From contig JBMOMW010000059.1 in NCBI GenBank assembly GCA_049325255.1, positions 585 through 64,584 on the forward strand: DNA of 64,000 bases. The letters are read 5' to 3'. Positions 44,302 through 61,649 of the stretch are shown here, piece by piece. A program made the position numbers and the translations under genes. Position 1 is the stretch's first letter; the number at the start of each line of letters is the position of its first letter. A model generated the notes under the pieces. It saw nothing but the letters and a program-made list of their open reading frames with translations. It was not told the DNA's origin and did no database searches. This stretch comes from Pseudomonadota bacterium. Its GTDB lineage: Bacteria; Pseudomonadota; Alphaproteobacteria; UBA11222.

Positions 44302-44529
44302 ATGATTGAACTCAAGGTTCGCAAATTCGGTAATTCGCTGGGCGTCGTGCTGCCCAAGGAAGTCATCAACCGGCTGCACACCAAAGACGGCGCGCCGCTG
44401 TTCCTGATCGAGGCGGCGGATGGAACCTACCGGCTGACCCCCTATGATCCGGCGTTCGAGCAGAAAATGGCGAAGGCCGAAGACATTATCACGCGCTATC
44501 GTAACACGCTGCACACCCTGGCTAAATGA
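44302..44529 (+). CDS. AbrB/MazE/SpoVT-fold antitoxin (Phd-like partner of Doc)
   Basis: 75 aa. MIELKVRKFGNSLGVVLPKEVINRL is a swapped-hairpin beta-barrel motif. It has a 4-nt overlap with doc. Confidence 0.8.
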   Translation: MIELKVRKFGNSLGVVLPKEVINRLHTKDGAPLFLIEAADGTYRLTPYDPAFEQKMAKAEDIITRYRNTLHTLAK

Positions 44530-44933
44530 GCGAACCGGTCTGGATTGAGGAGCGTGATGCGCTGGCCCTGCATGACCGGTTGCTGGCATTGTTCGGTGGC
44601 GCTGCGGGGTTGCGGGATAGCGGATTACTGAAATCCGCGCTCGCCCGGCCACAACAGATTTTCGCTTACGCCGGCACCGCCGGCACGATTGATCTGGCGG
44701 CGGCTTATATTACCGGCATTGTGCGCAATCATCCCTTTATTGACGGCAATAAACGCACCGGCTTTGTGACGGGCGTTTTATTTCTGGAACTGAACGGCTT
44801 GCGCTTTACCGCCAGCGAGGAAAACGCCGCTCAGGCGATACTGAATCTCGCGGCGGGCACATTGGATGAAGCGGGGTTGATTGGTTTTTTGCGGGAAAAT
44901 GTGATCCGCAATTCTGAAACGGATTCAGTCTGA
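44526..44933 (+). CDS. doc: Doc (death-on-curing) Fic-family toxin
   Basis: 135 aa with Fic motif [11 protein letters not shown]. Confidence 0.88.
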
Positions 44934-47941: not shown

Positions 47942-47978
47942 GATGTGGCGACGGGACGATGTGGCGACGGGACGATGA
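47942..47978 (+). repeat. 16-bp tandem direct repeat (2.3 copies) GATGTGGCGACGGGAC
   Basis: Exact copies lie at 47942-47957 and 47958-47973, followed by the partial copy GATGA. Confidence 0.8.
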
Positions 47979-48042
47979 ACGGCCCCGGCTGCCTGCGGAC
48001 TTTGAGATGTTTCACAGAATTACAGCAATGAGGAGTACTGAA

Positions 48043-49155
48043 ATGGAAAACTTCAATATCGACGACGCCTATGAATGCGTGAAGTCGGATGATTTCCCGG
48101 CGATGCTGAACCCGGACCGCTACATGAAGCGTTCAAATGCGTTCGACAAGATCATTGCGGCGACCAATGATCATTTCTGGGATCCGATGGACCCGAAATA
48201 TGTCGATTTCTCGAAGAAGTTTGACATTGAAAATGAAATGATCATGCCGGAAACCTTCAATCTGGAACTGCGTACCGCCGTGGCCGACAAGCTGAATGAC
48301 AAGCAGAAGGTTCGCATGGTGAACGGCTCTGTACATTTCACACTTTCCGGTATTCTGCATGGCGAACAGGCGGCACTTAGCCTGTCTGCTGATCTGTGCC
48401 ACATCCTGCTGGATCCGGGGGCGCAGGAATATGCCGCCAATCAGGCTCGCGAAGAAGCCCGTCATGTGACCGGCTTTACCAATTATATCCGTTCCATGTG
48501 GGGCAAGCCGACGGTCATGGATCCGTTCCTGCTGACCCTGATCAATGAAATGGTCTACAGCCCGCTTGTCTGGAAAAAGATTGTCGGCCTGCAAATGGTT
48601 CTGGAAGGCCTGGCCATGGGCCTGTTCTCGAACTTTTACCAGTTCGCGAACGACCCCGTGCTGAAACAATTGTTGCAGTTCACCATGACCGACGAGGCGT
48701 TCCACCACAAATTCGGCAAGATCTGGGCGGACAAGACCGTGCCGTATCTGCCCGAACATGAACGCGAGCAGATCGAAGACTGGGCCTGGACGATTTTCAG
48801 CGCGCTGCTGAAAGGCAACAGCTTTGGTTTCGAGCACAAGAATGCGCTGTACACGGAACTTGGCCTGGACTGGAAATGGGTGCAGGCTGCGGTATTCGAA
48901 GCCATGACCGACAAGCGCCGCCGCGACAGCATGACAAAAAGCACGAGCGTGTTCCGCTCGCTGGTCAAGACGCTGCTGAAATCCGGGATCATCACGCAAC
49001 GCACCGCGCCCAATTATGCATCGTTTGTCGATCTGAAAGAGCTGCGTGAAGAAGGCGATTCGATGGTCGGCGACGCGATTGCCGAAGAAGGCATCAAGTT
49101 CCTCAAGGCGATCAACGAAGGCCGCGATCCACGCGCACTGGCGGCGGCTGAATAG
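48043..49155 (+). CDS. ferritin-like diiron-carboxylate protein (putative oxygenase), 370 aa
   Basis: Start is at ATG 48043 after AGGAG (7-nt spacer). The four-helix-bundle ligand pattern E...ExxH...E...ExxH is present as LHGEQAA, REEARH, VLEGLA and TDEAFHH. Confidence 0.6.
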   Translation: MENFNIDDAYECVKSDDFPAMLNPDRYMKRSNAFDKIIAATNDHFWDPMDPKYVDFSKKFDIENEMIMPETFNLELRTAVADKLNDKQKVRMVNGSVHFTLSGILHGEQAALSLSADLCHILLDPGAQEYAANQAREEARHVTGFTNYIRSMWGKPTVMDPFLLTLINEMVYSPLVWKKIVGLQMVLEGLAMGLFSNFYQFANDPVLKQLLQFTMTDEAFHHKFGKIWADKTVPYLPEHEREQIEDWAWTIFSALLKGNSFGFEHKNALYTELGLDWKWVQAAVFEAMTDKRRRDSMTKSTSVFRSLVKTLLKSGIITQRTAPNYASFVDLKELREEGDSMVGDAIAEEGIKFLKAINEGRDPRALAAAE

Positions 49156-49177
49156 TCGATCCGTCTACGGATAATCC

Positions 49178-49212
49178 AAAAATGGCCGCGCAGAAAAGTG
49201 CGGCCATTTTTA
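49178..49212. terminator. bidirectional terminator between convergent diiron and tetR genes
   Basis: AAAAATGGCCGC-loop-GCGGCCATTTTT has an A-run and a T-run flanking an 8-bp GC-rich stem. It overlaps the TetR stop codon. Confidence 0.7.
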
Positions 49213-49854
49213 TGCCTTGATCACCTTGCCCGGGTCAGACAATGGCAGGGCCGGGATGCCGCCGGTAAACAGTTGCGATGCGAATCGCGCGGCGGCTTCC
49301 ACATCCACGGGCATGCGCTGGATCATGGCGTCGCCAACTTCCAGCGCCACGCCGATAATCGCCGACACGAAATAATCGATATCAATGAATGGCAGCAGTC
49401 CGCGCCGGATCGCCTCTTCCACGTCATCGCGCAGACCGGCAATAATTTCCGGCGTATCCTGCTGCAAGCGCAACAGACCACTGTTGCGCCGCGTGATTTC
49501 ATACAGATCGCGGTTGATATTAATGATCTCGAAAAAGGAATGAAAGGTGCGATGCACGAAATCCGAAAATGATGTGGCGCGGCTGCGTTCAGCATGCAGG
49601 CGCGGGCGCACCTGCTGCGCCGTTTCATCGCGCAGCGCCTTGAAAATTTCTTCCTTGCCGCGAAAATAATTGTAAAACGTGCCGCTGGCCAGACTGGTGC
49701 GCCCGATAATGTCGCGCACTGTCGTCTCGCTATAGCCAAGTTCGCCAAACAGTGCGCGCGCCGCCGTCAGAATGGCGGCGCGATTGGCCTCTTTGGTCTG
49801 CTCCCGCTTGCCTGCGGGAACCGGTTTATGACTGGCGGACGGTTTCTTATCCAT
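49210..49854 (-). CDS. TetR/AcrR-family transcriptional regulator
   Basis: 214 aa. N-terminal HTH is ILTAARALFGELGYSETTVRDIIGRTSLASGTFYNYF. Confidence 0.88.
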   Translation of the reverse strand: MDKKPSASHKPVPAGKREQTKEANRAAILTAARALFGELGYSETTVRDIIGRTSLASGTFYNYFRGKEEIFKALRDETAQQVRPRLHAERSRATSFSDFVHRTFHSFFEIININRDLYEITRRNSGLLRLQQDTPEIIAGLRDDVEEAIRRGLLPFIDIDYFVSAIIGVALEVGDAMIQRMPVDVEAAARFASQLFTGGIPALPLSDPGKVIKA

Positions 49855-49979: not shown

Positions 49980-51707
49980 TTATGGAGCATCCAGCACGGC
50001 GGCAACCCCACCTGAAGAAGCGCTGTCGCCGAAGCGGTTCAGAACCCTGGGCGTCCCTGTCGCAGCGTCAATCTCCAGCCCAACCCATACATTGCCCGGT
50101 TGTCCAACCGTTGGGCTGACTGTTGCGCGAACAGTGCCATTGACAATCGTGCTGCCACCTGGTCCACGGGAAATTTGCCCGTTGGTGATATAGCGCATGC
50201 GGACATTGGCGTCATTGGCCAGGCCTGTGGTGCCGACCCCTGCTGCGCCTGCGCCAAAGTTAAACACCCCGGCGCGATAGGGCGCGCCTGCAGTCAGAGC
50301 CGATATGCCGACCACCTCGGACCCGCCAAGGCCGGTCTGGTCTTCATCCAGCAAGGCAAACGGCGCCGAGGTGAAGCTGCCCGTATTGGCGAAATTGATA
50401 TCCGTTCTTCCTCCGGAACTGTTGGGGTCATTGACAGACACATGCAAATCAACATCTGCAATATTTGACCAGATCATTTCGATGGCAAAAGGCAGCGCCA
50501 CACCAAATGGCAGGGCGCCAAGCGCATCATTCTGCGCCACCTGGGTCACATTTTCAATCGGCGTGGCGCCAGTTGGAGGCGGTGGCGGAGGAGGTGCAGT
50601 AGTTGTAGGCGGCGGCGCAGTCGTGGTGGGTGGCGGTGGCGCTGTTGTCGTGGGCGGCGGCGTTGTAGTCGGCGGCGGCGGCGCAGTCGTGGTGGGCGGT
50701 GGTGGTGGCGCCGTTGTAGTGGACGGTGGCGGCGCCATGTTTGCCTCTTGTTGAGAAGCGCCGCCAATGACCCCGCCATCCGACGCCAGCGTCGTGCTCT
50801 CGGTCGCGACGCCAAGGTCCGCCAGCACCCCGGCAACGGCCACTGAATCCATCCCCGTTTCAGCCACCGACGAACCGGATGTTGCTGCGGCATCTACTAC
50901 TGTAGGCCCGCTTTCGGATGCGCCGCCAGCGCTGTCCGATTCACCTTCACCTTCCGCCGGGGCGTCCGTGGTTGGCACGGGCGCCGTTAACTGACTTTGC
51001 AGCAGAAGGGTGAGACGCGGGGGGGTCTGAATGACCGGCCCTGGCGCCTGCCCCGGTGTGACAAAAGTTCCATATCCGGCGCGAAATACGTCTGTGCCGC
51101 CCTGCGGGGTCGTCACGGTCATGCCGCCCACCTTCAGGCCGCCGTCATTACGCCCGCCCGGGCCAAGCAGGCCGATAAACTGGGCGCCATCGGCCGATTC
51201 GGGGTCATCCATAATGAACAGCGCCGTGCCGCGCACCCCGATGGTGGCGTCACGGGACCTGATCGTGACAGCGGTTGGATTGGTGGCCGCCACCTTGCCC
51301 GACACATAGCGCAGCACGCCCTTGGTAAAATTTGCCGTCAGCCGGCCGGCCTGCGAAGAAGGATCATACACAAATTCGTCAATCACCAGATCGCTGTCCG
51401 GTCCAATGGTGAACACGGTTTCATCGAGTAGCAAGACCTGCATGCGAGAGGCCGCCGCACTGTTCACCCGGTCCCCCAGCAGCATATCCATGCCGGATTT
51501 CACGGCCTCCGGCGCCGGGCGTTCGCCCTCGGAAACGCGCAGATTGCCGATGACGCCTGCGGCCACCCCCGCCTGCTGGGCCGCCAGAACCGGCCCGCTC
51601 AGGACGCTCAGGCCCATTAGCGCCATGGCGCAGCCTCCCATCATGTCCAGAGCAATCCTGCGGCTCGCCATCAATGTCCCAAACTTGAATGTCCCAAACT
51701 TGCGCAT
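49980..51707 (-). CDS. secreted FecR-domain protein with Pro/Thr repeat linker and YfaP/DUF2135-like C-terminal domain
   Basis: Start is at ATG 51707 after GAGGAG. Signal peptide ends ...LSVLSGPVLA|AQQ. The FecR-like region is LLGDRVNSAAASRMQVLLLDETVFTIGPDSDLVIDEF. An acidic Ser/Gly segment follows, then (TTTAPPPP)n. The C-terminal part reads IWSNIADVDLHVSVNDP...LLDEDQTGLGGSEVV...APYRAGVFNF. Confidence 0.7.
   Translation of the reverse strand: MRKFGTFKFGTLMASRRIALDMMGGCAMALMGLSVLSGPVLAAQQAGVAAGVIGNLRVSEGERPAPEAVKSGMDMLLGDRVNSAAASRMQVLLLDETVFTIGPDSDLVIDEFVYDPSSQAGRLTANFTKGVLRYVSGKVAATNPTAVTIRSRDATIGVRGTALFIMDDPESADGAQFIGLLGPGGRNDGGLKVGGMTVTTPQGGTDVFRAGYGTFVTPGQAPGPVIQTPPRLTLLLQSQLTAPVPTTDAPAEGEGESDSAGGASESGPTVVDAAATSGSSVAETGMDSVAVAGVLADLGVATESTTLASDGGVIGGASQQEANMAPPPSTTTAPPPPPTTTAPPPPTTTPPPTTTAPPPPTTTAPPPTTTAPPPPPPPTGATPIENVTQVAQNDALGALPFGVALPFAIEMIWSNIADVDLHVSVNDPNSSGGRTDINFANTGSFTSAPFALLDEDQTGLGGSEVVGISALTAGAPYRAGVFNFGAGAAGVGTTGLANDANVRMRYITNGQISRGPGGSTIVNGTVRATVSPTVGQPGNVWVGLEIDAATGTPRVLNRFGDSASSGGVAAVLDAP
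50574..50735 (-). repeat. imperfect tandem coding repeats encoding PPPSTTTAPPPPPTTTAPPPPTTTPPPTTTAPPPPTTTAPPPTTTAPPPPPPP
   Basis: GGCGGYGG/GTNGTNGT units repeat with a period of about 21-24 nt on the plus strand. Confidence 0.85.
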
Positions 51708-51852
51708 AGTGATTCTCCTCAGCCCTTTAAGCGACAATACTTAACAATTATTAACTGAATCTTACAGATGAATATATTCTTGCTTGGTTAACCATTGAAA
51801 GGCATAAACAGCATATTGGCGATGTTTTTTTATCCTTTTTAGGGGGATCCGG

Positions 51853-53289
51853 GTGTACCGAAAGCTTGGAATCATTAGAGGGGCAGTGGCGTTATCTGGC
51901 TTGGCGGGTCTGCTTTGTTTGAACGGTGTGGCGGTGGCGCAGGTTACCCAGCAGGAAGCAGCCGAGGATGTGCGGAGCAAAACCCGTGAACAGGTGTCAC
52001 GCGCCACGCAAACCAAAAGCCTGACTGAAAAGGCGGGAGCATTACCCGGTATTGGCTATAATGAGGTGCTGGCGTCACCGGATGATCCGACGCTTAATCT
52101 GCGTTATGTCAAGGATCTGATTGCCAAGGGCAATGTCCAGTTGGCGGCGGCAACCACTGAACGCATTCTGCTGCAATATCCCGAAGCCGACGATGTGCGC
52201 CTGCTTTACGCCATCCTGCTGTATCGCATGGACGTGTTGGACGAAGCATCGGTGCAGCTTGATATTCTGGAAATGCACAAACCTTCGGGCGTCATTCAGG
52301 CGGAAATTGGCCGCTATCGCGATTTGATAAAACAGCGCCTGAACCCGCTGAAGCGCAGCGCTGCGGTAAGCGTTGGCATGCATTACGATACAAACCGCAG
52401 CACATTTCCGGACGATGGCGCATTTCTGGTGCGCGACTTTCCATTCTTGCTTCCGGGCGGCGAGACCGACGATTGGGGCCGCATCGCCATCGGTTCCGCC
52501 CAGATAGCGAAAGACACCGGCAATCAGAAATTGCAGCAGGTATTTGGCGATATGGCCGTGCTGTATGATGATCAGGTGGAAGTTGACGCGCTGGACGTGA
52601 ATGCGCTGTTGTTGAACGCCGGCTTTTTGTACAAAACCGTTTACGGCGATCTTCTGCCGCGTGTGCATGCAAGCTGGATCGAGCTGGATAACAAGAAATT
52701 CTCACATGACTATGCCGTTTCGCTGCGCGGGCAACGGCCCGTCTTCCAGTCCAAAATCAAGGGGTTTGCGCAGATCACCACCGGCTGGCGCAGATATAAT
52801 AATACTTCAGCCCTGCCATTCTCCAGCGAGCAGGACAGCAACTATCAGCGCGTCGAAATTGGCGGCGACCGGCAGATCGATGCGACCACCGGCCTCAGAC
52901 TTGCCGTCGCCTATAACAGTGTGGACGCCGACGAGGACTATGAAGGTTATGACAGCTATGAGGTTTCAGCCAATCTGACAAAGGTGCTGCCGCGCGGCAC
53001 GTTCATATTGGCCAGCATTTCTGTCGATAAGAAATTTTATGATGGCATGGACCCGTTCGTCTCGGTGAATACCCGCAAGGATCTGGATATGTCGGTCGAT
53101 CTGACCTATGGCGTTCCGGTGGGCACCATTGTCGGACTGATGAGTGAAAACCAGGCAGGACCAGAACCCTTGCGCCAGATCATGCTGAACCTGACCGCTG
53201 GCTACGAAGACTCGAACTCGAACCTGCCGAATTATCAGTATGATAATTACCGGGGCCAATTCATGTTCAACCGCAGTTGGGATTTCTAA
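51853..53289 (+). CDS. outer-membrane protein with N-terminal TPR region and C-terminal beta-barrel, DUF560/Slam-like (putative type XI secretion component)
   Basis: 478 aa, GTG start after AGGGGGA, and signal peptide ...LNGVAVAQ. A TPR-like helix pair (LRYVKDLIAKGNVQLAAATTERILLQYPEADDVRLLYAILLYRMD) is followed by alternating-hydrophobicity strands (GMHYDTNRS...). The C-terminus is GYEDSNSNLPNYQYDNYRGQFMFNRSWDF with a terminal Phe. The family assignment is from memory of the DUF560 pattern. Confidence 0.5.
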   Translation: MYRKLGIIRGAVALSGLAGLLCLNGVAVAQVTQQEAAEDVRSKTREQVSRATQTKSLTEKAGALPGIGYNEVLASPDDPTLNLRYVKDLIAKGNVQLAAATTERILLQYPEADDVRLLYAILLYRMDVLDEASVQLDILEMHKPSGVIQAEIGRYRDLIKQRLNPLKRSAAVSVGMHYDTNRSTFPDDGAFLVRDFPFLLPGGETDDWGRIAIGSAQIAKDTGNQKLQQVFGDMAVLYDDQVEVDALDVNALLLNAGFLYKTVYGDLLPRVHASWIELDNKKFSHDYAVSLRGQRPVFQSKIKGFAQITTGWRRYNNTSALPFSSEQDSNYQRVEIGGDRQIDATTGLRLAVAYNSVDADEDYEGYDSYEVSANLTKVLPRGTFILASISVDKKFYDGMDPFVSVNTRKDLDMSVDLTYGVPVGTIVGLMSENQAGPEPLRQIMLNLTAGYEDSNSNLPNYQYDNYRGQFMFNRSWDF

Positions 53290-53378: not shown

Positions 53379-53543
53379 CTAGGGATTACGTTTGCCCTTT
53401 CCATCGGAAATTTCTGGTTCTTCTTTCATGGCGAAATAACCAATAGTGCCGTCAAACGCGCCAGCAGCACCGCTGTTTTGTACGTACCAGTGCAGCGCCA
53501 GAATGATCATAATAAGGAAGAACAACCAGATAATTGCGGTCAC
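53379..53543 (-). CDS. 54-aa single-pass membrane ORF translationally coupled to the Wzy_C gene
   Basis: It falls below the ORF-track size cut-off and was translated by hand: (GTG)TAIIWLFFLIMIILALHWYVQNSGAAGAFDGTIGYFAMKEEPEISDGKGKRNP. Its GTG overlaps the upstream TGA as GTGA. Confidence 0.3.
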   Translation of the reverse strand: MTAIIWLFFLIMIILALHWYVQNSGAAGAFDGTIGYFAMKEEPEISDGKGKRNP

Positions 53544-54814
53544 GCATACGCCCTTTGCATTGTTGCAGCCGATGTCAATTTTAATTCACGCAATACGATT
53601 GCACGCAGGTTACAGACCAACGCCATGTTGAGCCATAGCCCAAACCAGAACTCCATCGAAAGCGCCATCACGCCAACGCCATAAACCAGCATGGAAAGCT
53701 GCAACATCCTTGCAAGATCGTTGGCCCATAAAAACCCGTTTTTGTTTTTTGTTAATTTTTTGATTCTGCTGCACCAAAGAAGTGTGATGGCCATCATCCC
53801 AAGAAATGCTCCAAACGCCAGGAACCCCTGACCAGCTAATATTTCCAAATAAGCATTATGGGTTGCACGTAAGATAGGGGTTCCAAGATGCGCGTTGTAT
53901 GTTGGGTAATATTGGTTATGTGCGCCAACTCCCAGAATGGGGTTCTCCAGAGCCAGTTTATAGGCAATTTCCCAAGCCTCGACCCGTCCGTTAAAGGAGC
54001 TGTCCTGTTCAGCATTGGAGATTGTGTCCATGCGCTGAAACCATGAATCGGGCATCAATGGCAATGCGCCGCCAATTGCGATGATAAAGATGATAAGGTT
54101 GAGCAGCTTGTTTTTGGAACGCGATATCAGCCCCAAAACCAATACCCCAAGTGAAATCAGTCCGCCGCGTGAATGCGTGCCAATAATGGCGACAATGCTG
54201 AGAGAAGATATCCCAATTGCCAGCATCCTTGCCCGTTTGTCGGCGCTCGTCCGGGCGAGATAGTAGGATAGCGGCACCAACATGGCCAACCCTACGGCGA
54301 GCTGATTATTGTCAGCGATGAGGGTTCCACCAGGGCCAGCGATATATCCGGCGCCGCCATTTGCAATCGTATACAAACCGCGCGTAACACCATAATAACC
54401 AACACTTATGACAAAAACCCATAATATGGCCTGGATTTTGACTTTGGTGTTCACCAGCCCCAGAACCGCGTATGTCATAAAAAGTACTGTTATTCCAACC
54501 CTGAACGGAGAATATGAAAGATCGCTGTCCAAAGAAAAAATCTGGGAAAGAATGACAAATGCGGTTAAGACAAAAAACAGGACAGTAAAGGCATTGGCCG
54601 CGGGGGGATTTTTGTCTTTGGTGGTGATAAGAAATATGACGGTTACTACACCCGCAATTAAATTTGAATAGCTCAATATTGCAGGGTTATAAGCTTCTGC
54701 TTGTGGCATCATCACAGAAAGCCAAACCCAGATAAGCAGGCTGACAAACCCTGCCTGCGTGTAAAGCGCAAATGCAATTCCCGTTATCACAAGCAATGTG
54801 ATCGTTTTTATCAT
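53540..54814 (-). CDS. O-antigen ligase / Wzy_C-domain polytopic membrane protein (WaaL/PglL/PilO-like)
   Basis: 424 aa with more than 10 hydrophobic segments. IGTHSRGGLISLG and ATHNAYLEILAGQGFLAFGAF resemble the Wzy_C core. The gene is markedly AT-rich (21 of 60 G+C at 53701-53760). Confidence 0.75.
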   Translation of the reverse strand: MIKTITLLVITGIAFALYTQAGFVSLLIWVWLSVMMPQAEAYNPAILSYSNLIAGVVTVIFLITTKDKNPPAANAFTVLFFVLTAFVILSQIFSLDSDLSYSPFRVGITVLFMTYAVLGLVNTKVKIQAILWVFVISVGYYGVTRGLYTIANGGAGYIAGPGGTLIADNNQLAVGLAMLVPLSYYLARTSADKRARMLAIGISSLSIVAIIGTHSRGGLISLGVLVLGLISRSKNKLLNLIIFIIAIGGALPLMPDSWFQRMDTISNAEQDSSFNGRVEAWEIAYKLALENPILGVGAHNQYYPTYNAHLGTPILRATHNAYLEILAGQGFLAFGAFLGMMAITLLWCSRIKKLTKNKNGFLWANDLARMLQLSMLVYGVGVMALSMEFWFGLWLNMALVCNLRAIVLRELKLTSAATMQRAYA

Positions 54815-55301: not shown

Positions 55302-55892
55302 TCAGTTTTTTCCGCCGGTCAAAGCCATTTCCACCAGATGTCGCGATACGGCGGGCAGGGAAAGTTTCAGCGCCGCCTGCTGGCCGTGGGCTGACATTTT
55401 CGGCCAGGTCTTGGCGATGACATCCACGACCTTGGCTTGCGCATGTTTGGGGGCAAAGTCCGCCAGATGGTCTTCCAGAAACACCAGACAGGCCACATCT
55501 TCCAGACGCTGCGCCTCTTCGTCCTGTTTCAGGCGTTCCTTGCGCACCAACTGGCCGACACGCTGCGCCACTTCGTCTTCATATCCGGCCAGGCGCAGAA
55601 TTTCCGCCGCCAGCACCGCATGGCGGCGTTTTTCTTCGGTGCGCCATTGCAGATAACCGGCGCGGCCTTCGGGATAATCTGTACGCGCAAGCTCCCAGCG
55701 TTTTATATGCTGGCAACGCGCCGCAAGCCGCAGCGCTTCGGATGCGTCAGGATACACCGCCTGCAGCATTTCACTCATGCGCCTTGCATAGACAAGTTCT
55801 GCGGGGCGCAGTTCGCCCTCATCCATAATCTGATTGGGATCTTGTGCGTGCACCTTGTCCATCGCGGCAATGGCGTCATCGAAACGCGGCAT
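55302..55892 (-). CDS. DUF4202 domain protein, last gene of the nitrate assimilation operon
   Basis: 196 aa, 26 nt downstream of nasA on the same strand. The family assignment is from recollection of the conserved AARCQHIKRWE...YLQWR region. Confidence 0.5.
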   Translation of the reverse strand: MPRFDDAIAAMDKVHAQDPNQIMDEGELRPAELVYARRMSEMLQAVYPDASEALRLAARCQHIKRWELARTDYPEGRAGYLQWRTEEKRRHAVLAAEILRLAGYEDEVAQRVGQLVRKERLKQDEEAQRLEDVACLVFLEDHLADFAPKHAQAKVVDVIAKTWPKMSAHGQQAALKLSLPAVSRHLVEMALTGGKN

Positions 55893-55918: not shown

Positions 55919-58582
55919 TCAGGCGGCATCCTGACGGACGGCAATGCTGTTTAGCAAGGCCTGAATTTCAGGGCGGCACGAACCGCAATTGGCGCCCGCC
56001 TGCACCGCTGCGCCAACAGCGGCCACGCTCTCCAGGCCCTGCGTTATGATTGCATTGGTGATGGTCTTGCGGCCAACATTATAACAGGCGCATACCATGG
56101 GACCGCTGCCGCACGAACGCCCCGCTGGCCGACCATGTAGAATGGCGGCGCGTACATCCTGCGTCAGGGACCTATCCAAAAACAGCGATTCCAGCCAGTC
56201 GCTATCGGGCAGAATATTGCCGGGGCCGATAAACAGACAGGCCTCAATGCCATTCTGCCCGATATGGGCGGCGCGATAAACGCCGCGCCCGCGATCCTGA
56301 TATTCCACATTACTATTTGCAAGCGCCGCACTGAAACTTTTGCGCGCCCAAACATCTGCATGGGCCGGGTCATCATTTCCGGCCAGCCGGTAAATATGGC
56401 AACCATCGCCCGTGCGCCTGCTCCAGAAACCAATTCTATCCGGCGATATTTGCGCGCGTGAAAGCAACAGGCCAGACCAGCGAAATTCTGCGGCGCAAAT
56501 ACTGGCAGGCGTGCATTTGAATTCAGGCTGCCCTGAAACAGGGTCCGTCACGGGGGGGATCAGGCTGCTGATAACGGCTTCAGACGCGAATTGATCGTTC
56601 CAGTGAATGGGCGCGAACATCATGCCGGGACGCTGATCTTCATTTATGCGCACCCGCAGCACGGTTTTGCCAAGCGCTGTCTGGACATGCGCCAGCCCCT
56701 GTTCCGTCACGCCATATCTGGCCGCGTCGGCAGCGCCGATTTCTACATAGGGTTCCGGGCTGTGACGGCCAAGTTTGCCCACGGTCCCGGTGCGGGTCAT
56801 GGTGTGCCACTGGTCGCGCGCGCGCCCGGTGTTCAGCACCATGGGAAAATCCGAAACCGGCCAGAAAGCGGGAATGCCGGGCGTGGTTGCGACAAAGCGC
56901 GCACGCCCGTCCGGCGTTGGAAATTTCCCGTTCCCCAGCAGGCGATCCACACCCTTTGGCTGTGCGGCGGTCACCGGCCATTGCACGGGCTTCATCGCGT
57001 CATAGCCCGCATCATCCAGCGCCGCCAGCGCGCTGATGTCAAACAGCCGCGCGCCAGTATTTTCAAAGCCGGACAGTTGCGCATATTCGCGGAAAATATC
57101 AGCGGGTTTCGTATAGTTGAAAGCTTTTGCGTAACCCATGCGCTGCGCCACCTCGGTGATGATCCACCAGTCAGGTTTTGCCTCACCGGGCAGCGGCATA
57201 AAGCCGCGCTGACGGGAAATACGCCGTTCGGAATTTGTAACCGTACCGTCTTTTTCGCCCCATCCTGCGGCGGGCAGCAGCACATCCGCATATTTTGCGG
57301 TGTCCGTACCCGTGACGCAATCCGACACCACGACGAAGTCGCATTTGCCCAGCGCAGCGCGCACCGCATTGGCGTTGGGCAGGCTGACGGCGGGGTTGGT
57401 GGCCATGATCCATACGGCTTTGATTTTGCCATCGCCAATGGCGCGAAACATATCCACGGCTTTCAGGCCCGGGGCCTGCGCGATGTTGCGCGCGCCCCAG
57501 AATCTTGCGACACGATCAATGTCATCGGCATTGGAAAAATCCATATGGGCGGCAAGCTGGTTGGCAAGGCCGCCCACTTCGCGCCCGCCCATGGCGTTGG
57601 GTTGCCCGGTCAGCGAAAATGGCCCCATGCCCGGTTTGCCGATGCGCCCGGTCGCCAGATGGCAATTCAGGATGGCGTTGACCTTGTCCGTACCCTGCGT
57701 GGATTGATTGACGCCCTGCGAATACAGCGTCAGGGATTTTTGCGTCACCGTGAACCAGTCAAAAAATTTCGCCACATCGGCGGGCGCAAGACCGCAGGCC
57801 TCAGCAACGGCCCTGACCGTACCGCTTTGTTGCTGGGCCTGCGCCAAGGCCGCGTCAAATCCATTGGTGTGGGCTGCGATATAGTCCCGGTCCAGCGCGC
57901 CCGCTTCCTGCAAATAACAGAGAAGGCCATTGAACAGATGCACATCCGTACCCGGACGAAGTGCGAGATGCAGATCGGCGGCCTCCGACGTTGCTGTGCG
58001 GCGCGGATCAATATTGATGATGCGTAACCGGCCTGTTTCGCGGCGCGCCATCAGGCGTTGATACAAAACCGGATGGCACCATGCGGTGTTTGATCCAACC
58101 AGAACAACCAGATCGGCCAGCTCGAAATCACCGTAACAGCCGGGAACAATATCTTCGCCAAAGGCGCGCTTGTGGCCCGCCACACTGGACGCCATGCATA
58201 ATCTTGAATTGGTGTCGATATTGGCGGTGCCGATAAAGCCCTTGATCAATTTGTTGGCGGCGTAATAATCCTCGCTCAGCAATTGCCCCGAAACGTAAAA
58301 CGCCACCGCATCCGGGCCATGTTGCGCGATGATTGAACGAAATTGCGCCGCGACATGATCGAGCGCATGATTCCAGTCGATACGCCTGCCCTTGAGCATG
58401 GGGTGCAGCAACCGGCCTTCCAGATTAAAAGTTTCGCCAAGTGCTGTTCCCTTGGAGCATAGCCGCCCGAAATTGGCCGGGTGGTCCTGTGTTCCACTGA
58501 TGCTTATGGCCCCGGAATCGGCGACTTTGACATCGACGCCGCAGCCGACCCCGCAATAGGGACAGCTTGTGGCGCTTTTCAT
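55919..58582 (-). CDS. nasA: assimilatory nitrate reductase catalytic subunit (molybdopterin oxidoreductase with C-terminal BFD-like [2Fe-2S] domain)
   Basis: 887 aa with an N-terminal CPYCGVGCG 4Fe-4S motif, MopB and molybdopterin-binding domains, and C-terminal CACYNV...CGSC. Confidence 0.93.
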   Translation of the reverse strand: MKSATSCPYCGVGCGVDVKVADSGAISISGTQDHPANFGRLCSKGTALGETFNLEGRLLHPMLKGRRIDWNHALDHVAAQFRSIIAQHGPDAVAFYVSGQLLSEDYYAANKLIKGFIGTANIDTNSRLCMASSVAGHKRAFGEDIVPGCYGDFELADLVVLVGSNTAWCHPVLYQRLMARRETGRLRIINIDPRRTATSEAADLHLALRPGTDVHLFNGLLCYLQEAGALDRDYIAAHTNGFDAALAQAQQQSGTVRAVAEACGLAPADVAKFFDWFTVTQKSLTLYSQGVNQSTQGTDKVNAILNCHLATGRIGKPGMGPFSLTGQPNAMGGREVGGLANQLAAHMDFSNADDIDRVARFWGARNIAQAPGLKAVDMFRAIGDGKIKAVWIMATNPAVSLPNANAVRAALGKCDFVVVSDCVTGTDTAKYADVLLPAAGWGEKDGTVTNSERRISRQRGFMPLPGEAKPDWWIITEVAQRMGYAKAFNYTKPADIFREYAQLSGFENTGARLFDISALAALDDAGYDAMKPVQWPVTAAQPKGVDRLLGNGKFPTPDGRARFVATTPGIPAFWPVSDFPMVLNTGRARDQWHTMTRTGTVGKLGRHSPEPYVEIGAADAARYGVTEQGLAHVQTALGKTVLRVRINEDQRPGMMFAPIHWNDQFASEAVISSLIPPVTDPVSGQPEFKCTPASICAAEFRWSGLLLSRAQISPDRIGFWSRRTGDGCHIYRLAGNDDPAHADVWARKSFSAALANSNVEYQDRGRGVYRAAHIGQNGIEACLFIGPGNILPDSDWLESLFLDRSLTQDVRAAILHGRPAGRSCGSGPMVCACYNVGRKTITNAIITQGLESVAAVGAAVQAGANCGSCRPEIQALLNSIAVRQDAA

Positions 58583-58911
58583 TCCGCCGCCTGTTGCCGG
58601 GGTCTGGGCGCGATATAAATGCGCCCGCCGGCAAGCTTCACAGGAATGGTGCGCGCGCAGCCATCATCCGGGTCGGCGCCAACGCCGCTATCCAGATGGA
58701 ACACCTGATTGTGCAGCGGGCAGGCGACCGAGCGCCCATGCACGATGCCCTGTGACAGCGGGCCGTCCTTATGCGGACAGCGGTCCTCCAGCGCGAATAT
58801 TTCATCCTCCGCCGTGCGGAAAATTGCAATGTTCATGCCGGGTGTTTTTACGACGCGCGCACCCAGACGCGGAATGTCCGCAACAGTGCCAACTTCGAGC
58901 CATTCGGTCAT
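58579..58911 (-). CDS. nirD: nitrite reductase small subunit (Rieske-like)
   Basis: 110 aa. The CPHKDGPLSQG...CPLH region and ATGA overlap with nasA support the call. Confidence 0.92.
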   Translation of the reverse strand: MTEWLEVGTVADIPRLGARVVKTPGMNIAIFRTAEDEIFALEDRCPHKDGPLSQGIVHGRSVACPLHNQVFHLDSGVGADPDDGCARTIPVKLAGGRIYIAPRPRQQAAE

Positions 58912-58926
58912 TTTATCGGGCTCCGT

Positions 58927-61365
58927 TCAACTGACAAGCTCAAGTGATTTGAACTCATGCACATGCACACCCTGTGTGGCGCGTTCCGCCCACGGATCCT
59001 TCTGCACAAATTTCTGTGACATCAAAAACCGCGCATTCAGCCGCGCGCGGCTTTGCGGATCGTTAACGACCTTCTCTTTCACATGTTCAAGGCCGACACG
59101 TTCCACCCAGGGCGCGGTGCGTTCCAGGTAATGCGCCTCCTGCCGGTAAAGCTGCATGAAGGCGCCGCAATATTCCAGCACCTCCGCCTCGGTTTCGACC
59201 TTGCATAACAGATCGGTCACGCGCACCTTGATGCCGCCATTGCCGCCGACATGCAGCTCCCACCCGGAATCAACCGCGATCACGCCGAAATCCTTGATGG
59301 TCGCCTCGGCGCAATTGCGCGGACAGCCGGACACGGCCATCTTCACCTTGTGCGGGGTCCAGCTTCCCCAGGTCATCTTTTCAATCAGCACGCCCATGGA
59401 CAGCGAAGCCTGGGTGCCAAACCGGCACCATTCCGAACCCACACAGGTTTTGACGGTGCGCAGCGCCTTGCCATAGGCGTGACCCGACACCAGGCCACCC
59501 GCATTCAGGTCTCTCCAGACATCGGGCAATTGTTCTTTTTTGACGCCCAGCAAATCGATGCGCTGACCGCCGGTGACTTTTACGGTCGGGATATCATATT
59601 TATCAACGACATCGGCGATGGTGCGCAGCTCCTTCGCATTGGTCAGCCCGCCCCACATGCGCGGCACAACGGAATAGGTGCCGTCTTTCTGGATATTCGC
59701 GTGCGCGCGTTCATTGATAAAGCGCGACTGGTAATCATCCACATATTCTCCCGGCCAGTCACAGACCAGATAATAGTTCAGCGCCGGACGGCAGGTGGAA
59801 CAGCCATTGGCGGTCTTCCATTGCAGCTCCTGCATCAGGGCGGGAATGCTTTTCAGTTCCTTGGCCAGAATCAGGCGGCGCACATCGTCATGCGATAAAT
59901 CCGTACACTTGCAAAGCGGCTTGACGCCAGACCCGGCCGAGTACCCATCGCCAAGCGTCAGCACCAATAACTGCTCAACCAGCCCGGTGCACGAACCGCA
60001 CGAACCCGACGCTTTTGTCTTGGCGCGCACTTCATCCAGCGTGCTAAGCCCGTGATCATTGATCGCGGTAACGATCCTGCCCTTGCATACGCCGTTACAG
60101 CCGCAGATTTCCGCCGTATCCGGCAGTGCCGCAACGGCGGAGCTAGGGTTTTCCTGGGCGCCTCCGGCAAAGGCCTGGCCAAATATCAGACTGTCGCGCA
60201 GCGGCGAAATATCTTCGCCATCGCGCAGCATCTGGAAATACCATCCGCCATCGCTGGTGTCGCCATATAACACCGCGCCACGGATGCGGTTGTCTTTCAG
60301 CACCAGCCGCTTGTACACACCGCGTGACGCGTCGCGCAGAATAATGTCTTCGGTGCCTTCGCCATCCGAAAAATCGCCAGCGGAAAACAGATCAATGCCG
60401 GAAACTTTCAACCGCGTATTGGTGACAGAACCGGAATAGGCGGCCTGCGCATCATCGGCAAGCTGACCCGCCACCACTTTCGCCATGTCGAACAGCGGCG
60501 CCACCAGACCATACACGGCGCCGCGATGCTGCACGCATTCGCCCACCGCCAGGATCGCGGGATCAGAGGTGATCATATGATCATCCACCACAATGCCGCG
60601 CTCGCAGGTAAGGCCGGACGCTTTGGCAAGCCCGATGCTGGGCTTGATGCCGACCGCCATGACCACCAGATCGGCGTCGATGCGCCGGCCATCCTCCAGC
60701 AGAATGCCTTCGGCTTTATCCTTGCCGTAAATTTCCTTGCTGTTGGCCCTGGTATTGATTTCGATGCCGCGCGCTTCGAGTTCGCGTTGCAGCAGATAGC
60801 CCGCCGCTTCGTCCAACTGGCGCTCCATCAGGGTTGGCATCAGGTGAATGACGCTGACCTGCATGCCGTTGGCGCGCAACCCATTGGCGGCTTCCAGCCC
60901 CAGCAGGCCGCCGCCGATAACGATGGCGCGTTTATGGGTGCGGCTGGCCGCCAGCATCTTCTCCACATCCAGCACATCGCGGAAGGTCACCACGCCGGGC
61001 AGATTGGCGCCTGGAATGGGCAACATGAACGGGTCCGATCCGGTGGCGATCAGCAAACGGTCATATTTGGCCCGGATGCCACAAGCGCTGACTACCTCAC
61101 GCGTCTCGCGATCAATACATTCGATCTTCGCGCCCATATGCAGGACAATGGCATTGTCCGCATACCAGTCGCGGCCATTGATAACGATGTCCTCAAAACT
61201 CTTTTCCCCGGCCAGCAGGGGCGACAGCATGATGCGGTTGTAATTCACATTGGGTTCCGCACCAAACACGGTGATGTCATAGACGCCCGGCGCGCGTTCG
61301 AGCAACTCCTCGACCGCCCGCATACCCGCCATGCCATTGCCGATAACAACCAGCCTCGGTTTCAT
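58927..61365 (-). CDS. nirB: NAD(P)H-dependent assimilatory nitrite reductase large subunit
   Basis: Start is at ATG 61365 (MKPRLVVIGNGMAGMRAVEELL). It has FAD/NAD folds, a BFD-like domain and a sirohaem/4Fe-4S region (TGGQRIDL, CxxxxxC). The upstream 73 codons of the ORF look non-coding. Confidence 0.94.
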   Translation of the reverse strand: MKPRLVVIGNGMAGMRAVEELLERAPGVYDITVFGAEPNVNYNRIMLSPLLAGEKSFEDIVINGRDWYADNAIVLHMGAKIECIDRETREVVSACGIRAKYDRLLIATGSDPFMLPIPGANLPGVVTFRDVLDVEKMLAASRTHKRAIVIGGGLLGLEAANGLRANGMQVSVIHLMPTLMERQLDEAAGYLLQRELEARGIEINTRANSKEIYGKDKAEGILLEDGRRIDADLVVMAVGIKPSIGLAKASGLTCERGIVVDDHMITSDPAILAVGECVQHRGAVYGLVAPLFDMAKVVAGQLADDAQAAYSGSVTNTRLKVSGIDLFSAGDFSDGEGTEDIILRDASRGVYKRLVLKDNRIRGAVLYGDTSDGGWYFQMLRDGEDISPLRDSLIFGQAFAGGAQENPSSAVAALPDTAEICGCNGVCKGRIVTAINDHGLSTLDEVRAKTKASGSCGSCTGLVEQLLVLTLGDGYSAGSGVKPLCKCTDLSHDDVRRLILAKELKSIPALMQELQWKTANGCSTCRPALNYYLVCDWPGEYVDDYQSRFINERAHANIQKDGTYSVVPRMWGGLTNAKELRTIADVVDKYDIPTVKVTGGQRIDLLGVKKEQLPDVWRDLNAGGLVSGHAYGKALRTVKTCVGSEWCRFGTQASLSMGVLIEKMTWGSWTPHKVKMAVSGCPRNCAEATIKDFGVIAVDSGWELHVGGNGGIKVRVTDLLCKVETEAEVLEYCGAFMQLYRQEAHYLERTAPWVERVGLEHVKEKVVNDPQSRARLNARFLMSQKFVQKDPWAERATQGVHVHEFKSLELVS

Positions 61366-61552
61366 AATCGCACACCCTTTATGCCCAGAACATTCATCCT
61401 GATCCGGGTAACGCAACAATTGGGCCAAGTGTGCTGTCCCAAAAAAATGTGCAGAATATGGGGGTTTTAGGGTTCCTGACGAATAGCTGCCGGTTTTAAT
61501 GCCATATTTTAATGCATAACGCCCATTTGACGGGCAGGCTTGGGGACCGGCG

Positions 61553-61582
61553 AAAAAAACGGCGGATGATGAATCCGCCGCC
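61553..61582 (-). terminator. rho-independent terminator between the ferredoxin gene and nirB
   Basis: The minus strand reads CGGCGGAT-TCATC-ATCCGCCG followed by TTTTTTT. Confidence 0.8.
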
Positions 61583-61649
61583 AAGTTTACCTGAAACCAC
61601 CTTCCTTCGGCATGAAGCGTAAGGTGGGGAGAACACGAACTGGGCTATG

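Follow-up and report, generated by a model that had tools for sequence, protein, structure and literature searches.

The window, which is the whole 64-kb stretch of DNA analysed here, carries a divergent pair of genes for an outer-membrane protein (OMP) related to Slam and for a secreted 575-aa protein with a FecR fold, and the two products clearly work together, because the co-occurrence of their genes is near-obligate. They would form a self-contained outer-membrane module, with an OMP that has diverged within the Slam / type XI superfamily and a 575-aa protein dedicated to it as partner. In related bacteria a CHASE2 cyclase gene usually stands beside the pair, which may therefore represent an outer-membrane arm, so far unrecognised, of a widespread signalling system.

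Gene pair and genomic neighbourhoods

A sequence-only reading of this DNA had described a divergent pair with a 145-bp AT-rich spacer. The ORF list of the window bears this out, with one frame of 575 aa and one of 478 aa, and the spacer has 36% GC against 57.4% across the whole window.

49980-51707, minus strand: FecR-fold partner gene with a secreted 575-aa product (ORF; stop codon at 49980-49982)
51708-51852, unstranded: divergent intergenic (putative promoter) region, AT-rich, 145 bp (GC content)
51853-53289, plus strand: Slam-like OMP gene, 478 aa (ORF; GTG start, AGGGGGA Shine-Dalgarno)

The partner gene starts at the ATG at 51707, which has a GAGGAG Shine-Dalgarno ahead of it. A TTG lies in frame at 51737 but is an improbable start, because orthologues with >90% identity begin at MRKFGT too. 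The intergenic region holds one putative sigma-70-like match, on the plus strand at 51751-51778. The neighbours of the pair in the window are TetR, an AurF-like protein and Wzy_C, and in the window clade the OMP and FecR genes are the sole genes conserved across otherwise unrelated contexts.

The partner gene belongs to a FecR subfamily with the motifs LLLDETVFT.GP and ID.FVYDP that adjoins a Slam-like OMP gene. The census of gene neighbourhoods that had been suggested for this pairing finds a FecR homologue next to the OMP in 26 of 26 genomic OMP loci, and the OMP in 25 of the 26 well-flanked metagenome loci found via FecR. The co-occurrence spans Alphaproteobacteria, Elusimicrobia and other metagenome lineages and comes in two gene orders and unrelated contexts. 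That two unrelated envelope proteins share a promoter region by chance is thus extremely improbable and effectively refuted, the counts from both sides being far beyond chance; on its side is a locus (P0138) that encodes a FecR protein with the C-terminal domain described below and has no OMP nearby.

A gene for a CHASE2 adenylate/guanylate cyclase is adjacent in 18 of the 26 well-flanked relatives, and among these 26 it never occurs without the OMP. The full OMP-FecR-CHASE2 cluster is found among loci L013-L026, in L030 and in many of L032-L111, and in two loci with the cyclase (L030 and L068) the FecR proteins carry the C-terminal domain. No CHASE2 or class III cyclase gene was found in the 64-kb window by tblastn and HMM searches, and near the pair in L001-L012 and L019 there is no CHASE2 + Guanylate_cyc gene. 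The adjoining cyclase in ~70% of well-flanked relatives, a link that the sequence-only reading missed, favours a sensory role for the pair over plain secretion.

The outer-membrane protein and its relation to Slam

51853-51939, plus strand: OMP signal peptide, residues 1-29, cleavage between VAVA and QV (inferred by reading the sequence)
52057-52341, plus strand: periplasmic TPR-like region, residues 69-163 (AF2 helices)
52348-53286, plus strand: predicted 14-strand beta-barrel, residues 166-478, with the end motif ...SNLPNYQYDNYRGQFMFNRSWDF (AF2 model)

The OMP has the layout that had led to its comparison with Slam, with a signal peptide ahead of a TPR region and a predicted barrel of 14 strands after it. 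In the AF2 model (pLDDT 77) the N-terminus is disordered, helices occupy residues 69-163 and 14 long strands span residues 166-477, which is the number of strands expected of a Slam; the barrel strands have pLDDT mostly of 75-95. The top TM-scores of the model are with the 14-strand barrels CymA and OmpG. Six of its seven extracellular loops are short (5-10 aa), and such loops, as modelled, would suit a conduit better than a ligand-binding receptor. The motif-rich end that had been pointed out is present, since the C-terminus reads ...SNSNLPNYQYDNYRGQFMFNRSWDF, and its motif recurs in the bona fide Slam used as reference below. The OMP has 32 close homologues, and TPR_19 matches all 32 family members, TPR_Slam (PF24575) matches 7 of them weakly, and the invariant residues of the family lie mostly inside the TPR region.

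The proposed resemblance to DUF560/Slam stands at the level of profile homology to a bona fide Slam and does not stand at the level of Pfam, where PF04575 fails and DUF2860 passes. The window OMP has no match to PF04575 (DUF560/SlipAM) at E<=10; in its close family 3 of 32 members match, all with E>=0.004, and 6 of 10 further relatives are sub-threshold with 13-19 bits against the cut-off of 22, a group that includes 5 of the 9 distant OMPs of L013-L026. With DUF2860 (PF11059) the OMP scores 30.1 bits (gathering cut-off 22.9), and the match, which is found in 17 of 32 family members, is limited to OMP residues 327-419, corresponding to profile positions 161-251 of 294.

The reference for profile comparison is a Slam (L112:4677-6047) that PGAP annotates as 'surface lipoprotein assembly modifier' and that adjoins a TbpB-like gene. 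In HHalign the OMP family profile matches it at a probability of 98.7% (P 4.3e-16), with 363 columns aligned colinearly between the TPR region and the final strand, and in hmmsearch it scores 63 bits; the window-clade profile alone reaches a probability of 86% (P 4.7e-6). As controls, FadL and OmpG give HHalign P values of ~0.1 and hmmsearch scores of 2.4 and -0.3 bits, respectively, and 20 shuffles give P >= 0.056. The motifs DTN.N and SN.P.Y...R...F are common to the OMP barrel and the PGAP-annotated Slam. An alignment at P 4e-16 with negative FadL and OmpG controls makes the OMP, by sequence comparison, a genuine though remote Slam homologue. Slam itself is an experimentally proven outer-membrane translocon for unfolded cargo (PMC9090332).

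The FecR-fold partner protein

51579-51707, minus strand: Sec signal peptide, residues 1 to ~43, cleavage near VLA/AQ (inferred by reading the sequence)
50958-51575, minus strand: FecR-fold N-domain and following helix, residues 45-250 (AF2, Foldseek)
50499-50957, minus strand: disordered linker, residues 251-403, acidic/Ser/Ala/Gly-rich and then with Pro/Thr repeats (AF2)
50574-50732, minus strand: PPPPTTT-type repeat spacer, residues 326-378 (imperfect 21-27 bp DNA tandem repeats)
49983-50498, minus strand: C-terminal beta-rich domain, residues 404-575 (AF2 pLDDT >92)

The four parts that had been read in the 575-aa protein are all recovered, with a signal that ends at VLA/A near residue 43, a FecR domain, a region disordered at about residues 252-395 and a C-terminal domain at 404-575. 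The signal peptide has an A-x-A-A-x-Q consensus that is kept in 48 partner homologues, and no lipobox in register is present in the partner protein. FecR (PF04773) matches with 27.7 bits (cut-off 24), pLDDT is >90 across residues 45-216, and Foldseek finds the FecR fold in the C-terminal cell-surface signalling domain of PupR (6ovk_R) and in the anti-sigma factor BDI_1681 (4m0n), with E 7e-5 and TM 0.5. The FecR N-domain is the best-conserved part of the partner family, for which 295 homologues were found. Over most of residues 252-395 pLDDT is <50, and all 48 partner homologues have a low-complexity linker, 64-155 aa long, that is Pro/Thr-rich only in the closest ones; the copy number of the PPPPTTT repeat varies between >90%-identical orthologues.

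FecR domains are classically periplasmic, and Pro-rich linkers, such as that of TonB, span the periplasm. The partner could be a periplasmic sensory adaptor that never crosses the outer membrane and, by way of its long linker, bridges the TPR region to a periplasmic or inner-membrane target, either a CHASE2 receptor encoded elsewhere or peptidoglycan; the stimulus would then enter by the Slam-like barrel, acting as a receptor or channel in the outer membrane. As the PupR match illustrates, FecR folds bind proteins in the periplasm, and the CHASE2 sensor domain, whose gene adjoins in those 18 of 26 relatives, is periplasmic too. FecR-CHASE2 pairs are known without an OMP: in Burkholderia soluble LysM-FecR proteins partner CHASE2 kinases without any OMP (PMC5192318), because of which the whole partner may stay periplasmic. 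In S. meliloti, perception of an external protein signal by CHASE2 cyclases depends on NsrA, a protein of the outer membrane (PMC7529298). Such an adaptor is unlikely, though it keeps some weight, since the short extracellular loops of the model would make a poor receptor surface, homology to a proven translocon favours the passage of a polypeptide (PMC9090332), the very large, variable and adhesin-like C-termini of relatives are hard to fit in the periplasm, and the window pair has no gene for an output partner nearby.

The C-terminal domain has the motifs W..DVDLH, LDEDQTG.GGSE and G.PYR..VFNF. The motifs of the earlier reading are present, with the first spaced as W-x4-DVDLHV and not with x5. 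No Pfam model matches this domain and no significant PDB relative was found by fold or by sequence, and its family comprises at least 3646 clusters at E<=1e-3. Its assignment to the YfaP/DUF2135 fold is not supported in the form proposed, since DUF2135 (PF09906) has no match at E<=10 in 48 FecR proteins with the C-terminal domain and, for 58 other proteins with this domain, is missing at E<=0.01 from the 25 families listed as most frequent. The one link left is to E. coli YfaP, which matches weakly in profile comparison, with an HHalign probability of 61% (P 7.8e-5, 73 columns) and 12.9 bits in hmmsearch. The C-domain family co-occurs with PKD, CarboxypepD_reg, SpaA, fn3 and T9SS sorting domains, a company typical of surface proteins. 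PKD-type and similar domains are found in periplasmic proteins too. The C-termini of the partner family are highly variable, from 60-100-aa tails up to >1000 aa rich in G/T/S/N, and a conserved FecR domain followed by a linker and a variable C-terminus is the layout of a docking domain with a passenger.

The AF2 model of the C-terminal domain has no match to a TbpB, hemophilin or fHbp fold in Foldseek, and the partner aligns with a TbpB-like cargo at HHalign P values of 0.02-0.3. These results bear on classical type XI secretion, in which the entire FecR-fold protein would be cargo released to the medium or the surface like hemophilin, and the cyclase of relatives would only regulate or sense. 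Slam homology and a gene arrangement with the cargo beside the OMP would agree with it, soluble, non-lipidated cargo exist, and marine cluster-3 T11SS OMPs occur without barrel-type cargo (PMC12282271, PMC8406197), so other cargo classes are expected. If the partner is cargo, it would be of a new class, as had been anticipated for the case that the two genes cooperate, since it has neither an 8-strand barrel nor a lipobox. Secretion of this kind is nevertheless quite improbable: the conserved domain of the whole family is a FecR fold, which has a known role in periplasmic docking and, once exported, could no longer serve a CHASE2 domain in the periplasm, the C-terminal 8-strand barrel targeting domain is absent from the partner, and the OMP falls outside PF04575.

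Proposed mechanism and comparison with known systems

The preferred reading is that, after Sec export and cleavage of the signal peptide, the FecR-fold N-domain would dock in the periplasm on the TPR region, the linker, which is long, disordered and Pro/Thr-rich, would be fed into the barrel and retained there, and the variable YfaP-like C-domain would reach the cell surface, with the FecR domain staying periplasmic. Docking of the FecR domain with passage of the linker and C-domain through the barrel has a little under an even chance of being correct. For docking speaks the match of the FecR fold to the PupR domain, a module that contacts an outer-membrane transducer on its periplasmic domain, and also that conservation peaks in the TPR region of the one protein and in the FecR domain of the other. 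The reading as a whole is favoured by Slam homology, near-obligate pairing, short loops, passenger-like C-termini, the surface-type domains that accompany the C-domain family and the CHASE2 cyclase adjacent in relatives. Against it count the absence of an 8-strand-barrel cargo domain, the failed PF04575 threshold, the classically periplasmic place of FecR domains, the lack of a cyclase near the window pair and its closest relatives, P0138, without an OMP nearby, and the periplasmic occurrence of PKD-type domains.

The FecR domain, on the periplasmic side, would in most relatives signal to the CHASE2 sensor domain of the adjacent inner-membrane cyclase, and the resulting trans-envelope sensor would be analogous to FecA-FecR. 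The window would hold a cyclase-less, divergently transcribed version, which either has its CHASE2 target encoded at another locus or merely displays its C-domain. It is a tentative and rather doubtful proposal that this so far unrecognised branch of the Slam superfamily acts as the outer-membrane half of a trans-envelope sensor, in which the barrel holds the linker, the surface C-domain senses or binds and the FecR domain relays to CHASE2 receptors (adenylate/guanylate cyclases), the cyclase having been lost or relocated in the window. If true, it would give the orphan CHASE2 domain its first input mechanism and a type XI OMP a role other than secretion.

Slam / type XI OMPs (PF04575; Slam1, Slam2, NilB, HrpB, HphB) share with the window OMP the order of signal peptide, periplasmic TPR region and C-terminal barrel of 14 strands, which in the window OMP is a prediction, as well as end-to-end profile homology with the DTN.N and SN.P.Y...R...F motifs and an adjoining partner gene. 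Known type XI cargo is recognised via a C-terminal 8-strand barrel (TbpBBD / lipoprotein C) and is often lipidated, whereas the window partner is not a TbpB-like lipoprotein or hemophilin and has its conserved domain at the N-terminus, with a FecR fold. The window OMP also differs in falling short of the PF04575 cut-off, which keeps it out of the published DUF560 networks, and in belonging to a family linked to CHASE2 cyclases, not to TonB or metal uptake.

A cluster of OMP, FecR and CHASE2 cyclase (with or without a phosphodiesterase) is mentioned in passing in Campylobacterota, where the OMP is called a 'TPR domain-containing protein' (PMC9239204). It has the same two protein families as the window, with the OMP beside the FecR-domain protein (PMC9239204), whereas neither the window nor its nearest clade has a cyclase or phosphodiesterase nearby, their pairs are divergent and not co-directional, and their FecR proteins have the extra YfaP-like C-domain. 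FecA-FecR-FecI and PupB-PupR have in common with the window a FecR-fold domain, which in the known systems touches the periplasmic domain of an outer-membrane protein, and a trans-envelope logic. The window partner lacks both the cytoplasmic anti-sigma domain and the transmembrane anchor of those systems, its FecR domain directly following a cleavable-looking signal peptide instead; there is also no adjacent ECF sigma factor or TonB-dependent transducer, the outer-membrane partner is Slam-like and the output in relatives of the window is a cyclic nucleotide.

In the S. meliloti NsrA-CyaK/CyaD1/CyaD2 system, CHASE2 cyclases also need an outer-membrane beta-barrel protein for activation by an external protein, and SMc02177, a FecR-domain extracytoplasmic protein, belongs to the same cAMP/Clr regulon (PMC7529298, PMC5498481). 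NsrA is described as far larger than the window OMP, with its barrel placed at residues 600-1200. YfaP / DUF2135, from the alpha-2-macroglobulin operon of E. coli, has the pattern W..DLDLH..P...LD.D.T.G.G.E...G.Y in common with the C-domain over 73 columns; the C-domain of the window, with ~170 aa, reaches well past the common region. RcsF in OmpA/C/F, TpsA-TpsB and the LapA-LapE retention module have a periplasmic domain held at a barrel, a linker in the lumen and a passenger outside, which is a conceptual parallel only, with no sequence relationship to the window pair. By analogy, the partner family resembles TpsA in combining a conserved N-terminal recognition domain with a variable passenger.

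The divergent pair and its neighbours

The sequence-only reading described a divergent pair formed by a secreted FecR-domain protein and an outer-membrane protein (OMP) resembling Slam/DUF560. Both open reading frames are located at the positions it gave and all the quoted sequence motifs are found, so the observation of the pair is confirmed, while its interpretation is partly supported.

Genes of the pair and flanking genes
47959-49854, convergent genes: AurF-like di-iron protein (398 aa, weak Pfam matches only) and TetR regulator
49980-51707, minus strand: FecR protein, 575 aa, ATG at 51707 behind GAGGAG
51853-53289, plus strand: OMP, 478 aa, GTG start behind AGGGGGA
53540-54814, minus strand: Wzy_C/DUF5935 protein, TIGR03097 at 292 bits

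The start of the FecR protein at MRKFGT is common to its >90%-identical orthologues. The intergenic region between the two genes has 145 bp and a GC content of 36%, against the window average of 57.4%. On the strand of the FecR gene, the TetR gene follows 125 bp downstream, and the two may be co-transcribed. Synteny of the TetR gene (loci L002, L003, L005, L006 and L007) and of the AurF-like gene (the first four of these) is restricted to the nearest relatives, and both genes were therefore rejected as parts of a conserved module. The TIGR03097 model describes a [quoted passage not shown], and the presence of such a gene beside a protein with a Pro/Thr linker is suggestive of O-glycosylation. 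The Wzy_C gene was rejected as a linker-glycosylating member of the module because it is absent from all 26 related genomic loci compared and has an atypical GC content (0.47 versus 0.574 in the window); this non-conservation argues for coincidence or recent acquisition. Elsewhere in the window, a 135-aa ORF at 44526-44933 (plus strand) has a motif resembling the Doc/Fic toxin family, a DUF4202 gene is found at 55302-55892, and three ORFs at 55919-61584 (minus strand) are similar to assimilatory nitrate/nitrite reductases (nasA-like, 887 aa; nirD-like, 110 aa; nirB-like, 885 aa).

The outer-membrane protein as a remote Slam homologue

The direct assignment of the OMP to DUF560 (PF04575, SlipAM) was dropped, since neither the Pfam nor the NCBIfam search gives a match even at E<=10. 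The Pfam models that do match are DUF2860, with 30.1 bits (cut-off 22.9) over residues 327-419 only, and TPR_19, below threshold. Among the 32 members of the close OMP family, DUF2860 is found in 17, TPR_Slam (PF24575) in seven (best E 5e-4) and SlipAM in three (best E 4e-3). SlipAM also gives colinear matches in six of ten further relatives, which comprise nine distant OMPs of loci L013-L026 and the OMP of L028 from the window clade, all sub-threshold at 13-19 bits against a cut-off of 22.

The AlphaFold2 model built from the family alignment (pLDDT 77) has a disordered N-terminus, five TPR-like helices at residues 69-163 and a barrel of 14 long strands (166-477), the strand number that had been expected for a Slam protein. 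With the TPR region placed on the periplasmic side, the first of the seven extracellular loops has 27 residues and the other six have 5-10; a turn on the periplasmic side, at 423-442, is long and helical. Foldseek matches in the PDB are generic barrels, with the 14-strand CymA and OmpG having the highest TM-scores, and no Slam structure is present among them.

A tblastn search of plasmids with the window OMP gives no match, and the same search with a distant member of the family retrieves a gene on plasmid pLA3 of Novosphingobium pentaromativorans, annotated by PGAP as “surface lipoprotein assembly modifier”. This gene lies immediately downstream of the gene for a “transferrin-binding protein-like” lipoprotein, making the two a textbook Slam-cargo pair. 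The OMP-family profile aligns with the pLA3 Slam over 363 columns (HHalign probability 98.7%, P 4.3e-16; 63 bits with hmmsearch), beginning at the first TPR and ending with the last strand. Within the alignment are a DTN.N motif that follows strand 1 and, at the C-terminus, the motif SN.P.Y...R......F, which had been picked out from the window protein. The profile of the window clade alone still aligns over 330 columns (86%, P 4.7e-6). As controls, twenty shuffles of the pLA3 Slam give P >= 0.056, and two true 14-strand barrels, FadL and OmpG, reach P ~0.1 and scores of 2.4 and -0.3 bits. By the profile alignment and the negative controls, the OMP is a genuine but remote Slam homologue that lies under the curated threshold of Pfam.

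The FecR protein and its C-terminal domain

The only Pfam match of the partner is FecR (27.7 bits, residues 79-165). At the N-terminus there is a putative signal peptide (cleavage site VLA|A), directly followed by the FecR domain, in place of a transmembrane anchor and a cytoplasmic anti-sigma domain. Reading the MGGC sequence of the signal peptide as a lipoprotein signal was also dropped, because its Cys precedes the hydrophobic core and the VLA|A site comes after. The AlphaFold2 model, built from 48 homologues (mean pLDDT 75), has a confident N-domain (45-216, pLDDT >90), a helix (230-241), a disordered region (~252-395) and a confident beta-rich C-domain (404-575, pLDDT >92). By Foldseek, the N-domain is similar to the C-terminal cell-surface signalling domain of PupR (6ovk_R) and to the anti-sigma factor BDI_1681 (4m0n), with E 7e-5 and TM 0.5. 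In the systems of these proteins, the fold has as its binding partner the periplasmic domain of a transducer in the outer membrane. A partner acting purely as a periplasmic adaptor is an unlikely alternative that still deserves attention. In a search with the whole model (49983-51707), the “Cell surface anchoring domain” 5ix9 is matched over 62 columns (E 3.7e-3, TM 0.74); the output does not give the matched part of the protein and the similarity is only a lead.

The linker is of low complexity in all 48 homologues, has 64-155 residues and is Pro/Thr-rich in the closest ones only. At the DNA level, the Pro/Thr spacer is formed by imperfect tandem repeats of 21-27 bp (window positions 50574-50736). 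The copy number of PPPPTTT varies among >90%-identical orthologues, with length differences of up to ~34 residues that could be natural variation or assembly collapse.

The C-domain had been likened to YfaP/DUF2135 on the basis of a W-x5-DVDLHV pattern. The DVDLHV element is present, with a spacing of W-x4 and not x5. Direct assignment to DUF2135 was dropped, as no Pfam or NCBIfam match is obtained even at E<=10, with 48 homologues scanned against Pfam, and neither fold nor sequence searches find a significant relative in the PDB. The C-domain profile aligns with Escherichia coli MG1655 YfaP, a DUF2135 protein, over 73 columns (HHalign probability 61%, P 7.8e-5), sharing the motif string W..DLDLH..P...LD.D.T.G.G.E...G.Y. 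The likeness to YfaP is consequently a fair lead, and membership of DUF2135 is not established. The C-domain also has conserved DxDxH, LDxD and E residues, which would be candidates for metal binding.

An exhaustive profile search retrieves at least 3646 C-domain clusters at 50% identity with E<=1e-3, and 1200 with E<=1e-10. In most cases the domain sits at the C-terminus of proteins of 450-1300 aa. It frequently closes proteins of 800-1000 aa that have no other annotation, and as many as 17 repeats occur in a single protein of 2612 aa. In a sample of 58 proteins it occurs with CarboxypepD_reg, PKD, PEGA, SpaA, fn3, VWA, FG-GAP and the T9SS Por_Secre_tail, and DUF2135 is absent from the families listed for them. 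It is thus a large extracytoplasmic family that has no Pfam model and of which many members carry domains typical of surface proteins. The single locus inspected for another C-domain protein (P0188) has no OMP.

Conservation of the pair and its possible mechanism

With one genome per species, the OMP-side census gives 26 loci, and a FecR homologue adjoins the OMP in all of them. From the FecR side, a metagenome scan left 80 loci, 59 of which have the OMP; among the 26 with enough flank, the OMP is present in 25 and a CHASE2 cyclase in 18, and no metagenome FecR locus has the cyclase without the OMP. The neighbourhood census proposed for this pair therefore finds the two genes together almost without exception, and coincidental adjacency is extremely improbable. 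In the window clade, formed by uncultured alphaproteobacterial MAGs with 46-96% identity, the two genes are divergent, are the only genes kept across loci and occur as two copies of the pair in several MAGs. In distant relatives (including Elusimicrobia, Hwanghaeella, Rhodospirillaceae, Brevundimonas, Caulobacteraceae, Hyphomicrobiales and Parvularculaceae) the OMP gene precedes the FecR gene on the same strand. Cultivable relatives with the full cluster are Hwanghaeella sp. 1Z406 and Brevundimonas denitrificans NBRC 110107. A gene of ~760 aa with CHASE2 and Guanylate_cyc domains adjoins 11 of 14 distant loci, often together with an HD-GYP/GAF or metallophosphoesterase gene, and no CHASE2 or class III cyclase is found within the 64-kb window. 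Among the 26 genomic loci, the C-domain is confined to the divergent-pair clade. The idea that it stands in for the cyclase was dropped because in loci L030 and L068 the C-domain coexists with both a CHASE2 cyclase and a divergent OMP. The window pair belongs to a widespread OMP-FecR-CHASE2 module, in a cyclase-less form with a YfaP-like domain.

The constant part of the partner family is the N-terminal FecR domain, the helix and the Pro-rich or low-complexity linker, while the C-terminus varies from tails of 60-100 aa to more than 1000 aa rich in G/T/S/N with no Pfam matches. Short FecR proteins in or next to CHASE2 cyclase loci (L018:2716-3756, L024:8357-9286 and L025:9179-10165) have a Pro-rich tail and a terminal Cys...Cys pair, which might form a small disulfide loop. 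A second FecR copy that lacks the C-domain lies between the FecR and OMP genes in two window-clade MAGs (L002:6787-7842 and L006:3461-4504), and two or three tandem copies occur in several CHASE2-linked loci (L041, L048, L057, L059 and L085). Different IS elements separate the two genes at L028:5558-7834 and L029:5253-7770, both contigs carrying the same FecR protein (P0091), and the L029 OMP gene is also broken in two, with products of 327 and 139 aa; decay of the pair seems to be under way in this lineage.

Five observations suggest that the barrel may handle the polypeptide of its partner: the OMP is a homologue of the Slam translocon, its partner is obligate and encoded next to it, conservation is highest in the TPR region and the FecR domain, the partner is laid out as a conserved docking domain, a linker and a variable passenger, and six of seven extracellular loops are short in the model. 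The analysis demonstrates homology, architecture and co-occurrence. We tentatively favour a threaded-sensor or display arrangement, for which we infer docking, threading, surface exposure and signalling: the FecR domain would stay docked on the TPR region, part of the partner would be exposed at the surface, and the periplasmic FecR domain would relay surface events to the periplasmic CHASE2 domain. The frequency of the CHASE2 cyclase makes sense if the FecR domain acts as such a relay. We know of no stimulus described for CHASE2 domains since the domain was defined.

Comparison with type XI secretion and CHASE2 systems

At present, type XI secretion is delimited by membership of Pfam DUF560 and by cargo whose C-terminus forms an 8-strand barrel. 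Export of the entire FecR partner by classical type XI secretion is doubtful, less probable than the adaptor role. The locus described here has a sub-threshold OMP of the Slam superfamily and a new class of partner, and the pair reveals a sizeable sister branch of type XI OMPs under the Pfam threshold. Its members come from Alphaproteobacteria, from Elusimicrobia and from many metagenome lineages, have a FecR-fold partner of different architecture throughout and are usually linked to CHASE2 cyclases. In reconstitution, Slam1 works as an outer-membrane translocon for TbpB in the unfolded state (PMC9090332). The networks published for DUF560 draw on members of PF04575. FecR is mentioned in neither of two T11SS papers (PMC8406197, PMC12282271), the first has no cyclase and the second no adenylate or CHASE term, and in none of the papers of our literature search does CHASE2 occur together with a term for Slam, T11SS or DUF560. 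Marine cluster-3 T11SS OMPs already hint at cargo of non-barrel type (PMC12282271).

A four-gene cluster of Campylobacterota with a CHASE2 cyclase, a phosphodiesterase, a FecR protein and one labelled “TPR domain-containing protein” is mentioned in a single sentence (PMC9239204), but its TPR protein was not recognised there as a barrel. Seen as a Slam-type barrel, such a “TPR protein” offers a concrete, testable model for how an external cue could reach a CHASE2 domain, and it widens the range of substrates to be sought in type XI systems. In Burkholderia, LysM-FecR proteins partner CHASE2 histidine kinases (PMC5192318). In Sinorhizobium meliloti, NsrA, a protein of the outer membrane, is required by CHASE2 cyclases, and the cAMP/Clr-regulated target genes of these cyclases include that of SMc02177, which has a FecR domain (PMC7529298, PMC5498481).
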